This document shows positions 5,245 to 58,046 of a stretch of 64,000 nucleotides of DNA, in pieces. The DNA is taken from assembly GCF_003018235.1 (NCBI RefSeq), contig NZ_CP027437.1, one strand, 5' to 3'. This DNA is from Escherichia coli (lineage in GTDB: Bacteria; Pseudomonadota; Gammaproteobacteria; Enterobacterales; Enterobacteriaceae). The position numbers and the translations under genes are program-made. Position 1 is the stretch's first letter. Every line of letters starts with the position of its first letter. The notes under the pieces were generated by a model. It was not told where the DNA came from. It worked only from the letters and a program-made list of their open reading frames with translations, and searched no databases.

Positions 5245-5331
5245 GCCGAGGTGGTGGAATTGGTAGACACGCTACCTTGAGGTGGTAGTGCCCAATAGGG
5301 CTTACGGGTTCAAGTCCCGTCCTCGGTACCA
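5245..5331 (+). tRNA. leuU: tRNA-Leu (leuU type)
   Basis: 87-nt sequence GCCGAGGTGGTGGAATTGGTAGACACGCTACCTTGAGGTGGTAGTGCCCAATAGGGCTTACGGGTTCAAGTCCCGTCCTCGGTACCA read directly; long variable arm; encoded CCA end; directly downstream of secG. Confidence 0.95.
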
Positions 5332-5344
5332 AATTCCAGAAAAG

Positions 5345-5368
5345 AGACGCTGAAAAGCGTCTTTTTTC
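5345..5368 (+). terminator. Rho-independent terminator after leuU
   Basis: Hairpin agacgctgaaaagcgtct followed by tttttt. Confidence 0.6.
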
Positions 5369-5405
5369 GTTTTATAGGCCAAGCAAAATATTCTTAATTT
5401 GATAA

Positions 5406-6359
5406 CTATTTGCCCAGGCATAAATCTGTTTCATCTAGTTTGAAATCTGTAATTTCTAACTTTTGCATTATTACCGGAAGCACTTGGTGAATTATTCTCA
5501 TGCCAGTGAGGATCTCGTTCATGTATATATCTGGATGAATGCGCGATTTATTGAAATCGAAACTTTCGGCTTCTGCTGCAACGCTAAGTTGGTCAGCGGT
5601 GTTATAAACCATTTCCAGAAGTTCGGCTCTTAACGGGATTCCCGCCCTGAATGCCATCATCTTGAGTTGATTCAACCAATTTTCGTAGTCTTTTTTAACT
5701 CTATAACGAAATTCTTTAAAGTTTGATGCAACAGGAGTATCAATTTCAATTTTGCATGCAGCAAGTGATATCAATGAACTCTGAATATTGATGGCTTCGC
5801 TTGAATAGACATCTAAATCGTCGTCCTGAATCAACTCATCAACATATGCTATGTAGAAACCATAAACATCATTCAGAGCATGATAAATATCATTAATTAC
5901 AGAACAATGAGCATTGCTCTCTAATATCTCCCAAAAAGCCTCTTCTTCGTCAGCATTATCGTCGTCAATATTAAGTCCTTCAGGAAAGGGAAGAGGTGTA
6001 GGAAAACCTATTCGCTTTAATACATCAATTGTTTCTTCAACCAAAAAGCCATCTTCGTCAGTAAGAGGTCGTGTTATATAACCCGTTTCAGCATCCTCCA
6101 TAGCTCGTTGAGCAAGAAAATGGATAAGCCGATCCCATTTCTCAGCATTCTCGACTGAGCCCGTCCATTCAACTAGTTGAGGAGAATAATCTCCTATTTG
6201 TGTAATATTTCTGAACTTTTTTTCCATATCAGCAGACATGTGTTCCCCTTTTTTCCATTTGCTAATTTGTGTTGAGGAAACACCTAAGTGGCTTGCTAAA
6301 TCTTTTTGAGTGCATTTCAGAGTATGTAATGCGAGGCGTACAAAATATTCACCATTCAT
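5406..6359 (-). CDS. HTH (XRE/Cro-CI-like) domain protein with an uncharacterised acidic/helical C-terminal domain, 317 aa
   Basis: Intact 317-aa ORF with an AAGGAA Shine-Dalgarno about 7 nt upstream of the ATG; N-terminal helix-turn-helix signature TQKDLASHLGVSSTQISKWKKGE; no catalytic motif recognised downstream; visibly AT-rich compared with flanking core genes; sits where K-12 has yhbX. Confidence 0.7.
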   Translation of the reverse strand: MNGEYFVRLALHTLKCTQKDLASHLGVSSTQISKWKKGEHMSADMEKKFRNITQIGDYSPQLVEWTGSVENAEKWDRLIHFLAQRAMEDAETGYITRPLTDEDGFLVEETIDVLKRIGFPTPLPFPEGLNIDDDNADEEEAFWEILESNAHCSVINDIYHALNDVYGFYIAYVDELIQDDDLDVYSSEAINIQSSLISLAACKIEIDTPVASNFKEFRYRVKKDYENWLNQLKMMAFRAGIPLRAELLEMVYNTADQLSVAAEAESFDFNKSRIHPDIYMNEILTGMRIIHQVLPVIMQKLEITDFKLDETDLCLGK

Positions 6360-6370
6360 CGGTCATTCCT

Positions 6371-6446
6371 TTTACTGAGAATAAAAACATAAAGTAAAAA
6401 TAGAATGCGCTGAAATTTACTTTATTTCATTTGGATTTTACTTTAA
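6371..6446. promoter_or_regulatory. Putative operator/promoter repeat array upstream of the HTH gene
   Basis: TTTACTTTAT at 6416-6425 and TTTACTTTAA at 6437-6446 (21-bp spacing), an inverted copy ATAAAGTAAA at 6389-6398, and a half-copy TTTACT at 6371-6376 next to the RBS. Confidence 0.35.
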
Positions 6447-6495
6447 TTCCGGATTCGGACACTGTGGCCCCTAAACACGGTCACATCTCTTAGCC

Positions 6496-6525
6496 GTAAA
6501 AAAGGCCGCATTTGCGGCCCTTATC
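6496..6525 (-). terminator. Rho-independent terminator downstream of argG
   Basis: Hairpin ggccgcaaatgcggcc followed by a T-run when read on the minus strand. Confidence 0.55.
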
Positions 6526-6540
6526 ATGAAAGCACTGAGA

Positions 6541-7899
<1,359 letters not shown>

Positions 7900-55438: not shown

Positions 55439-55509
55439 TTTTGGTGCACAGGGTAAGATGAATAAATATCTACGGTATTAATAATAGACTTTGTAAGAAG
55501 TTATTAAGT

Positions 55510-56697
55510 CTATATTGCATTTAAAAGGTCGTAATTATACGTATAGTCCTCTCTGGTAAAATATTGATTCTCTGAGTTATAAGCTTCATATGTATTATAT
55601 TTTACGACTTCAAAGCAATTGTCTGAAGAATTTTCGTCTTTCTCGAGTGTATTATCTGGAAGGAATTCCTCTGAGCTAGAGTCCTCTATGTTTAAATCTG
55701 TATTGTAATTAATTTTTGGATCGATTAGATAAGCATTTCCTTTGACGCTTTCATAATCTTTAATGATTATATCGATGTAATAATCTATTTTTTCTGATGA
55801 GAATGCTTTCATCTCTGGTAATCTAATTCTGTTCAAGTAATTGTTAATTTTCGATGAGCTTTTATATATTTCTTTTGTTAATTCATTTTCTAATTCATCT
55901 GTTAGAGTTGCTCTTGGTATAGATTCTATAATTGCAAGTCTCATAATTTTTAATTGTTCTTCGGTAATATCCCCAAGCGCATTTAAACAACTTTCGACAA
56001 GCTTAATTTTTTCTTCAGAATACATATCGCTAATGCTTGTTATAACAGGCGTTATTTTTAGTAAATAATCCCAGGAGATTGTGGCGTTTTGTGTTGAACT
56101 AACGAAATTTACCTGAAACATGTTGGCATTAGTAAAATCTGTGTCATCCAATTTAAAAGGATTTAAAATTGTATTGGCCATATGTTTATCTGTAAAATCA
56201 TAAAGTTCTAAATCGACATTCCGTAAGTCCAGAGAGGATAGATCAACTATACCTCCAGTCCCACAACTAAAGATTACGTTCAACCTCCTGATTTCATTGT
56301 AAATGTCTTTCAATGGGCAATTAACATTGATATTGCCTGTGGATATTTCCTGGTTTTTTAACGGTTCATTAATGGTAAGTTCACAGGTATTGTCTGATCG
56401 TTGAATAATTCGGGCGTTATAACCTAAAAAATCCAGACGAAGAGACGAGTCATTATAAAGAATTACATTTTGTAAGTACGCTAATTCTTTTTGAAAATCA
56501 CCAGTGATAATGCATTTCCCACCTGGTTGTAACGCGTTAAGTAAAGTGACCATTTGAACAGAGGTCTGTTTTAGTTTTTCTATGCCTGGTGCTAGTGCTT
56601 CGAGGTTATTTCCTATGGGGCTTTCAGGAAGATCATTCATTTTTCGACGGGCTAAATCACAACTAATATCATTACCAATTGATGAAACAGGGGACAT
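55510..56697 (-). CDS. yhaC: Uncharacterised pentapeptide-repeat-containing protein YhaC
   Basis: 395-aa ORF; very AT-rich; central run of pentapeptide-like repeats (DLSSLDLRNVDLELYDFTDKHMANTILNPFKLDDTDFTNANMF); position next to rnpB matches K-12 yhaC. Confidence 0.85.
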   Translation of the reverse strand: MSPVSSIGNDISCDLARRKMNDLPESPIGNNLEALAPGIEKLKQTSVQMVTLLNALQPGGKCIITGDFQKELAYLQNVILYNDSSLRLDFLGYNARIIQRSDNTCELTINEPLKNQEISTGNINVNCPLKDIYNEIRRLNVIFSCGTGGIVDLSSLDLRNVDLELYDFTDKHMANTILNPFKLDDTDFTNANMFQVNFVSSTQNATISWDYLLKITPVITSISDMYSEEKIKLVESCLNALGDITEEQLKIMRLAIIESIPRATLTDELENELTKEIYKSSSKINNYLNRIRLPEMKAFSSEKIDYYIDIIIKDYESVKGNAYLIDPKINYNTDLNIEDSSSEEFLPDNTLEKDENSSDNCFEVVKYNTYEAYNSENQYFTREDYTYNYDLLNAI

Positions 56698-56718
56698 TAT
56701 TTTATCCTTTATAAATAA

Positions 56719-57288
56719 TCAATAAAAATCATTATTAAAATGATCGGGTGAAAAAAAGAGAATTTGCCAACAATCTGAAGGAATGGCTGTTTTATTAAAG
56801 TACGTAGGGGGGGTTAAGATGGCTTCTTTTCGGGTGAATTTTGCACAATACTTAGAAATCGTCTCCTTAATATATTCCAGCTCTTTTTTATTGACGACTG
56901 AGCAAGTACATTGTTCACCAAAAGGTGCAAAAGTGCCTACATCTAATGTTTGTATGATGTAATCGTCATGTTCTCCTGTAGAAATATCTATGATGAATGG
57001 ACTCATATTTTCCGGTTGGATTCGGATCATGACAGAAGGAATATCGCCTTGATAGAAATTCAATGCAGTAATTGCAGATAATACTCTCCGCAGTTCATTA
57101 CTTATACTGTAAATTTTATTAACGTCATTGGTGGAGACAATTTCTGCAAACTTTCTTTTTACCGTCCAATAATCAATATTTCTATTGTGATTGTTAACCA
57201 CTGCGTGCATTGGCGGGATTGAAGGGTGAAAAATATGTGCAATTGGGAAGCCTTTCATTGATGCCTGCCTTGTCATCATGACAAACAA
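56719..57288 (-). CDS. yhaB: Uncharacterised protein YhaB
   Basis: 189-aa AT-rich ORF immediately downstream of yhaC on the same strand; start is uncertain. Confidence 0.75.
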   Translation of the reverse strand: MFVMMTRQASMKGFPIAHIFHPSIPPMHAVVNNHNRNIDYWTVKRKFAEIVSTNDVNKIYSISNELRRVLSAITALNFYQGDIPSVMIRIQPENMSPFIIDISTGEHDDYIIQTLDVGTFAPFGEQCTCSVVNKKELEYIKETISKYCAKFTRKEAILTPPTYFNKTAIPSDCWQILFFSPDHFNNDFY

Positions 57289-57513
57289 TAATAGATGCTT
57301 ATTTTCCTCGCAGGGTTCTTTCGCACTATCAAAAAACGCTCATTTACCCGGCGTTACAGTAAACGAAGCAACATTCTGTGGCCTACGCCGATCAAAAGCT
57401 CTGTGAAAATTTCCCTTGTTGTCTTTGTCTGACCTTATCGCGGCGACCAGCAATTATTCGTTTTGTGATCCTCAACACAAAATGCTATTCGTCACCTATG
57501 AGGGGAGAAGAAT

Positions 57514-57858
57514 TTATGGAAAACGATTGCATTCACAAAATGACGTCCTGTCAGAAGAGAAAAAGTTGACGTTAATCAATTGTTCGAGATGATCAATATT
57601 TGTATTCGAAATTTTAAAATATTGATAAAATAAATGTTTGTTCTCCAACAAATAGCGTGAAAAAATGTGACGTGCCGCATTATTTATCGCTGAAAATGAT
57701 TTATTTATAATAAAATTTGAGAACTTGCTCATTAAATTTAACTCAAAATTTGCCTGGTAATTATCCGGTAATTGCTTGAAATATGGTCTCAGCCCCTTTT
57801 TTGTATTAACCACATAACGAATGATGTTATCGCCATAAAATATGGTTATCCCCGTCAT
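57514..57858 (-). CDS. tdcR: tdc operon activator TdcR (ORF here is longer than I recall for K-12)
   Basis: ORF 57514..57870 divergent from tdcA, about 190 bp upstream; AT-rich; assignment is by position; boundaries uncertain. Confidence 0.45.
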   Translation of the reverse strand: MTGITIFYGDNIIRYVVNTKKGLRPYFKQLPDNYQANFELNLMSKFSNFIINKSFSAINNAARHIFSRYLLENKHLFYQYFKISNTNIDHLEQLINVNFFSSDRTSFCECNRFP

Positions 57859-58046
57859 TTTTTTTGACAAAAATCAGGGTTTATGCTGATTTTTATACTT
57901 TAACTTATTGATATATAAAGATATTTAATTGGAATAACGATACCATGGAAAGTATTGAAAGTTAATTTGTGAGTGGTCGCACATATCCTGTTCATTTCAT
58001 TTTGATACACTTCATGCCGTCAATGAGGTAATTAACGTAGGTCGTT

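Follow-up and report, generated by a model that had tools for sequence, protein, structure and literature searches.

The segment between leuU and argG

Several copies of one short AT-rich motif lie directly in front of a minus-strand gene for a helix-turn-helix (HTH) protein in the stretch of Escherichia coli DNA analysed here (64 kb, in the following called the window). This arrangement raises the question whether the copies are operators for self-regulation, bound by the protein in front of its own gene, as had been proposed in an initial annotation. The gene was located at 5406-6359 on the minus strand, both from RefSeq and from the sequence, and encodes a protein of 317 aa (WP_001588285.1), which RefSeq labels 'helix-turn-helix domain-containing protein'. 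The gene order in the window is folP-glmM-secG-leuU, the minus-strand ORF, argG, metY, rimP and nusA; the HTH gene stands alone between leuU and argG as a single-gene insert, and argG (6541-7884, minus strand) adjoins its cassette. The GC content is 32-42% across the HTH ORF stretch, compared with about 52-57% in the flanks.

Homology to strain K-12 ends at position 5373 and restarts at 6540. The strain-variable segment in between (5374-6539, 1.17 kb) comprises the HTH gene, the operators and the argG terminator, while at this junction K-12 has a 2-kb segment with yhbX, the gene for a phosphoethanolamine transferase. Because K-12 homology stops and resumes at these two positions, the segment is, as judged from the alignment, an alternative cassette to the yhbX segment of K-12. 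The HTH gene was found at the leuU/argG site in 236 of 5426 complete E. coli genomes (about 4%), in two alleles represented by 7 and 229 genomes. Homologues also occupy the same site in Salmonella (71% aa identity), in Citrobacter koseri (74%) and in one relative with 90% identity. The E. coli gene with its operators was also encountered, at 98% identity, on a contig of 1485 bp (L008, JAIJJM010000762.1) from a metagenome-assembled genome named 'Collinsella sp.', which is probably a contamination of that bin by E. coli DNA. A terminator-like hairpin of argG, GGCCGCAAATGCGGCC followed by TTTTTT on the minus strand, was recognised at 6496-6522 from the sequence and as an inverted repeat in a repeat search; it was not among the calls of a terminator scan of 5300-6600. 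The predicted hairpin would part argG transcription from the promoter of the HTH gene.

The repeats were found at the positions given in the initial annotation, i.e. the direct repeats TTTACTTTAT at 6416-6425 and TTTACTTTAA at 6437-6446, 21 bp apart from start to start, the inverted copy ATAAAGTAAA at 6389-6398, and TTTACT at 6371-6376, which shares one base with the Shine-Dalgarno sequence AAGGAA. The last of these had been described as a half-site. It turned out to be part of a full fourth site, reading CTCAGTAAA on the gene strand (6379-6371), since this stretch is homologous to TTTACTAAA at the same position (-16) in Salmonella and C. koseri. The four sites, all given here relative to the minus-strand gene, were designated O1 to O4. 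O1 (6437-6445) is an exact copy of the 9-mer, TAAAGTAAA on the gene strand, with its centre 82 bp before the ATG, at about -45 from the transcription start inferred by homology and just upstream of the -35 hexamer; AAGTAAAA at this site was unchanged in an alignment of E. coli, L007, C. koseri and Salmonella. O2 (6416-6424, gene strand TAAAGTAAA) is centred at -61 from the ATG, 21 bp from O1, within the spacer between the -35 and -10 hexamers at about -24. O3 (6390-6398) has the opposite orientation, reading TTTACTTTA on the gene strand, and its centre lies at -35 from the ATG, 26 bp from O2 and at about +1/+2 of the inferred start. O4 (6371-6379, gene strand CTCAGTAAA, core AGTAAA at 6376-6371) is centred at -16 from the ATG, 19 bp from O3, and its last base is the first base of the Shine-Dalgarno sequence (6366-6371 on the minus strand, TTCCTT on the plus strand). 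The start codon ATG follows at 6359-6357. The E. coli site variant TAAAGTAAA is asymmetric (TAAA-G-TAAA) and non-palindromic, with AGTAAA as its constant part.

Motif, spacing and promoter position

The exact 9-mer TTTACTTTA occurs three times in the 64-kb window when both strands are counted, and all copies lie within 6390-6445. Shuffles of the window gave an expectation of 0.41 copies, and one shuffle in 100 reached three. The two direct copies, 21 bp apart, are embedded in a longer repeat of 18 nt (83% identity), and no other pair of sites 20-22 bp apart was found in the window, even with two mismatches. When the surroundings of the array (6360-6470, 111 bp, 33% GC) were subjected to dinucleotide shuffling, three or more copies of any 9-mer appeared in 142 of 20,000 shuffles (0.7%); local AT-richness is a weak explanation for the repeats. 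A low-GC block at 55500-58000 (29-40%), which contains yhaC, an unnamed ORF of 189 aa and tdcR, showed several isolated near-matches and one exact TTTAGTAAA centred at 56061, and no pair 20-22 bp apart. These near-matches were taken as AT-rich background.

For comparison, one genome per species was scanned, which gave 70 loci beyond those at leuU/argG in Salmonella, C. koseri and the 90% relative, and counts were made on a non-redundant set of 48 homologous loci (Proteobacteria, Acidobacteria and Desulfuromonadales-type taxa). Copies of TTTAGTAAA/TTTACTAAA were present almost everywhere in the 140 bp before the start codons. In the 48 loci the strict form TTTA[CG]TAAA was counted 57 times in 9.6 kb of upstream DNA (200 bp per locus) and 5 times in 368 kb elsewhere, the motif being about 400 times rarer in flanking DNA than upstream of family genes. 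Pairs of sites 20-22 bp apart with at most one mismatch were detected in 28 of the 48 upstream regions and in none of 1944 background windows; with at most two mismatches the corresponding numbers were 42 of 48 and 9 of 1944, and 25 of 571 for AT-rich background windows. A second pair, which would hint at a regulon, was found neither in the window nor in the 368 kb of scanned flanks of the relatives' loci. The position matrix built from 91 sites reads a-T-T-(T/a)-A-G-T-A-A-A-t, and the family consensus aTTTA(G/C)TAAAt is palindromic and merely 9-11 bp long. Neighbouring sites were spaced by 20-22 bp in 31 of 46 cases, with a mode of 21. In the alignment of Enterobacteriaceae the sites appeared as islands of conservation and the E. 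coli allele/L007 substitutions fell between them, except in O3 of L079. This E. coli strain (FDAARGOS_944) carries a natural A>G change in the O3 core (TTTTTGCTTTA), the only change in an operator core among the E. coli alleles inspected.

It is extremely improbable that the repeats arose by chance in AT-rich intergenic DNA and have no function. The region is AT-rich, the rare local shuffles mentioned above do reach three copies, and the operator-pair pattern TTTASTAAA-N11-13-TTTASTAAA also turns up in AT-rich viral contigs that have no relation to the gene (at least 120, none of them encoding a family member); yet motif, spacing and position are conserved over the 48 loci against a near-zero background, and the motif co-varies with the protein, as described below. 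The pairs on viral contigs had also been considered as targets or decoys of the protein. Their gap sizes ranked 13 > 12 > 11, unlike those of the family, and they were taken as background.

At the HTH gene a consensus scan returned no sigma-70-like E. coli promoter scoring at least 9 of 12. By homology, candidate hexamers were assigned on the minus strand at 6425-6430 (-35, ATGAAA, 4/6, homologous to TTGCAA in C. koseri and TTGAAA in Salmonella) and, 17 bp after ATGAAA, at 6402-6407 (-10, CATTCT, 3/6, aligned with AATAAT in Salmonella and CATAGT in C. koseri). Together these score 7 of 12 and are weak. An alternative predicted promoter consists of TTCAGC (6414-6409), a spacer of 17 bp and TATGTT (6391-6386), with a score of 8 of 12. 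Under either candidate promoter the sites would cover the core promoter and the leader. Since the E. coli hexamers are unmapped and weak, the placement of the sites relative to the transcription start in E. coli leans on Salmonella and C. koseri. An Rfam search showed no RNA family in the leader, its single match being the tRNA.

The layout in the family was read where a good sigma-70-like promoter could be predicted, so that all positions refer to predicted promoters. Loci with four sites (e.g. Salmonella L003, C. koseri L005, L051 and L060) had site centres at -45/-46, -24/-25, 0 to +2 and +21/+22 relative to the predicted start. Among loci with two sites, some carried the first pair at -45/-24 (L029, L041, L043, L025, L028 and L036) and others the second pair at about 0/+20 (L039, L045 and L049). 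Measured from the ATG, the centres lie at -82/-61/-35/-16 in E. coli, at -84/-63/-37/-16 in Salmonella and at -83/-62/-36/-16 in C. koseri, and the E. coli array fits the four-site layout of the family. The motif is real, non-random and conserved with the family in spacing and promoter position.

The array of TTTACTTTA copies is probably what E. coli has of a set of four operators that is part of the neighbouring gene's unit, travels together with this gene and serves negative autoregulation. That the sites are operators for the adjacent HTH protein at its own promoter, as first proposed, agrees well with the finding that motif, 21-bp pairing and promoter position travel with the family across phyla. 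The HTH domain would recognise an AT-rich site of 9-11 bp, and sites would be paired at 20-22 bp, i.e. two helical turns. In the first pair, O1 (about -45) and O2 (about -24) would bracket the -35 hexamer and fill the spacer; in the second, O3 (about +1) and O4 (about +21) would overlie the start of transcription and the 5' leader as far as the ribosome-binding site. As the sites overlie promoter, start and leader, their occupancy should block RNA polymerase, which would keep the protein at a low, buffered level. The fixed spacing suggests that one protein oligomer spans a 21-bp pair, both sites of which would face the same side of the helix, while the step of 26 bp between the pairs would place these on different faces. 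The large helical domain behind the HTH may supply oligomerisation and/or signal sensing or effector activity.

Two details of the original proposal gained no such support. The repressor had been called dimeric; the family consensus is a short palindrome, but the site has just 9-11 bp and is asymmetric in E. coli, and because of this it does not reveal the stoichiometry. Self-repression had been called tight, a reading that rests on the positions of the sites, and the E. coli hexamers are weak and unmapped. The deviation of the E. coli sites from the family consensus (TAAA for TTTA on one side), which no change in the recognition helix matches, counts against the operator model.

Activators can act from about -45, so that a site placed there might in principle activate as well. 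Cognate sites might serve positive or dual autoregulation, in which O1 would help RNA polymerase onto a poor promoter, with repression from the remaining sites setting in only when the protein is abundant. This possibility gains from the poor E. coli hexamers, as none was called by the scan and the homology-based pair reached the low score given above, from the position of O1 at about -45 and from those relatives that keep the O1/O2 pair only. It was nevertheless considered unlikely. O2 falls in the spacer, O3 on the transcription start and O4 within the leader, all of them positions where hindrance of the polymerase is expected, and near-consensus promoters carry the same sites (TTGTCA-16-TATAAT in L039, TTGACA in L029), which indicates that the sites are not tied to weak promoters. 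On these sequence grounds, cognate operators with self-repression as their effect are the most likely reading of the motif.

The HTH protein and a base of its proposed operator

In an AlphaFold2 model, residues 1-66 of the protein form a five-helix HTH of the XRE type with a recognition helix at 29-36 (STQISKWK), and residues 67-317 (about 250 aa) form an all-helical domain. The model, built on an alignment of 54 sequences, was confident (mean pLDDT 91.4, pTM 0.84). Pfam covered residues ~6-42 alone (HTH_19, HTH_3), and did likewise in 54 relatives scanned singly; the N-terminal five-helix HTH matching HTH_3/HTH_19 is the feature of the XRE (Cro/C1-type) class. Searches of Pfam, PADLOC, NCBIfam, PHROGs and a PDB sequence profile gave no match to the helical domain, all matches being at the level of the HTH. 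Peptidase_S24, the self-cleavage domain of CI/LexA-like proteins, was absent from the protein and the 54 relatives by Pfam. In these relatives H275-P276-D277 and E282 are invariant. The best-conserved stretch outside the HTH comprises residues 263-301 (about 5457-5573), AE.E..G.N..R.HPDIYMNELL.GMR.IHQVLP, and may be a catalytic or ligand-binding site, though no match to a family or fold accounts for it. Several charged residues of the helical domain are conserved as well. The helical domain was also seen without an HTH, as a C-terminal-only form of about 209 aa with 25-29% identity, in AFDB entry A0AAU9QIA7 (Vibrio jasicida) and on Vibrio campbellii plasmids (H23-H25). One such Vibrio relative is labelled 'hemerythrin-like'; the label was not adopted, as just one His is invariant in the family.

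At a cut-off of E <= 0.001 the family numbered 747 clusters when grouped at 90% identity; grouping at 50% left 332 representatives. Its members are full-length, and sequences from Gamma-, Beta- and Deltaproteobacteria-type taxa are about 55% identical to one another. Source names were generic throughout, and the protein also occurs in many Salmonella contigs. A literature search with the protein accession, the motif and the leuU/argG/yhbX locus returned nothing, or unrelated papers only.

Residue 30, which occupies the second position of the predicted recognition helix 29-36 (VS-P/S-T/A-QISKW), was found to vary together with one base of the operator. All 31 loci with Thr30 had sites of the TTTAGTAAA type (TTT), and 10 of the 12 loci with Ala30 had sites of the TTAAGTAAA type (TTA), L010 and L018 being the two exceptions to the rule (Fisher p = 3e-8, a statistic that ignores phylogeny). 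On a neighbour-joining tree the combination Ala30/TTA appears in at least four separate places, for example in L025 beside L009, in L037 beside L024, in the clade L042/L044-46 and in the clade L047/L051/L052/L060/L067. Ala30 was also present in L200, a relative with 27% identity on a viral contig of 281 kb, together with TTAACTAAA-TTGACA-TTTAGTTAA. For the TAAA-for-TTTA variant of the E. coli site on one side, no consistent matching change of an HTH residue was found among the loci compared.

The co-variation of residue 30 also backs the idea of self-operators, and is the strongest indication in these alignments that this protein, rather than a host factor, reads the motif. A host factor that might bind instead would be a regulator of the OmpR type or a nucleoid protein with a preference for AT-rich DNA. 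OmpR half-sites are rich in TTTAC, with the half-site TTTACTTTT, which the E. coli variant TTTACTTTA resembles, and the region has a GC content of 33%, as an AT-preferring protein would favour. However, the motif is found with the gene even in such distant taxa as Acidobacteria, relatives of Desulfuromonas and Alphaproteobacteria, and has the roughly 400-fold deficit in flanking DNA already described; one of its bases also tracks a residue of the recognition helix, and no host factor shared across these taxa would explain this. Binding by a host factor was accordingly rated very unlikely.

Gene neighbourhood and known repressor systems

An all-against-all comparison of neighbouring ORFs in the 48 loci revealed no conserved partner gene. 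It follows that the only target travelling with the gene is its own promoter, and that the moving unit would consist of the gene, this promoter and the operators. The immediate neighbours were mainly housekeeping genes, such as rpoD, glnE, yifB and genes for a TonB-dependent receptor or a MocR-type regulator. A tRNA or tmRNA gene was present at a distance of up to about 1 kb in eight of 45 loci. A few neighbours were related to defence or toxin-antitoxin systems, namely DarG, Cas3f and two kinases of the HipA/YjjJ family (L012 5185-6264, L015 1856-3919, L018 4962-6281 and L028 167-1516); HipA-like neighbours were thus present in 2 of 48 loci.

The repeats might also be structural sites of a small mobile unit, i.e. 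recombination or end sites or iteron-like sequences, with no regulatory role. Phased repeats of about 21 bp are reminiscent of iterons, the 1.17-kb segment is strain-variable and lies beside a tRNA gene, and the loci of eight out of 45 relatives are close to tRNA or tmRNA genes as well. The sites are, however, confined to one flank of the gene, where their distances to the -35/-10 hexamers and to the start codon are constant, and no recombinase or replication gene lies alongside. A purely structural role is therefore highly improbable.

The protein had further been suspected of being a toxic or phage-responsive factor, for which no direct support was found. Matches in PADLOC-DB 2.0.0 were at the HTH level only (residues 2-49, E >= 1.9e-04), tblastn of 50,697 phage records gave no homologue of the family, and the defence and toxin-antitoxin neighbours are anecdotal. 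A paper on E. coli defence hotspots and its supplements do not mention the HTH locus at leuU/argG. Plasmid-borne members of the family were rare (5 records), and IMG/VR contained a single, distant full-length relative. It is conceivable, if doubtful, that the family is a self-contained single-gene module in which the helical domain with its HPD...E residues is a new effector or sensor, e.g. with an anti-phage or addiction function. The occurrence as 1.1-kb islets between housekeeping genes or near tRNAs, the identity of about 55% across proteobacterial classes and the lack of a partner gene would fit such a module and are no proof of it. If it were true, the four-site operator would ensure that very little of a protein that might do harm is made.

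Among known systems, repressors of the lambdoid/phage 434 type (operators OR1-OR3) resemble the present case in their XRE/Cro-C1 HTH and in several copies of a short AT-rich operator at their own promoter, which give autoregulation, and lambdoid operators are spaced by about two helical turns. The protein described here differs in that it has no S24 peptidase or CI-type C-terminal domain, and the loci of the family show no divergent lytic promoter and no prophage context. Lambdoid operators also measure 14-17 bp, compared with a conserved site of 9-11 bp here, and the E. coli sites are non-palindromic. Aca autorepressors (e.g. Aca7) have about 70-120 aa and are encoded beside an acr gene, while the present protein has 317 aa with an extra domain of 250 aa, and its family has no partner gene and is not phage-borne. 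C proteins of restriction-modification systems, which act on OL/OR C-boxes, measure about 80-100 aa and are encoded ahead of a restriction gene, whereas no restriction-modification genes were linked here.

In overall build, with an XRE HTH at the N-terminus and about 250 aa of all-helical domain behind it, the protein is similar to RRNPP/AimR-like regulators. In AimR, short half-sites far apart are bridged by one dimer, and bridging of this kind would fit the fixed 21-bp pairing. The features of the RRNPP/AimR group, a sensor domain of TPR-like helical repeats and a gene for a cognate peptide, were not found in this protein and at this locus. Antitoxins of type II with an XRE domain (HigA, HipB and MqsA) show weak similarity in the HTH and likewise autorepress through repeats at their own promoter, but the HTH family has no adjacent toxin gene as a rule, and its scores were far below the family cut-offs. 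No co-transcribed toxin gene was conserved in the 48 loci, and the E. coli gene has no companion between leuU and argG.

In kind, the regulation would thus be ordinary autoregulation of the XRE type; what appears to be new is the family, the operator shared across phyla and the uncharacterised helical domain. The proposed set of sites provides a concrete operator model for a widespread and unstudied family of regulators that ranges from Enterobacteriaceae to Acidobacteria (some 750 clusters at 90% identity, over 300 at 50%). Its elements are the consensus of the site, the four positions, the fixed pairing at 21 bp and a single predicted specificity residue (Thr30 versus Ala30). Knowledge of the gene's off-switch would also offer a practical way into the function of the helical domain.

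A copy of the gene very close to that of L028 was observed at the end of a viral contig (L201, positions 1-240, IMGVR_UViG_3300031933_000229). It keeps O1, the TTGACA hexamer, O2 and the first ~41 codons and then diverges, and the break may be an insertion junction.
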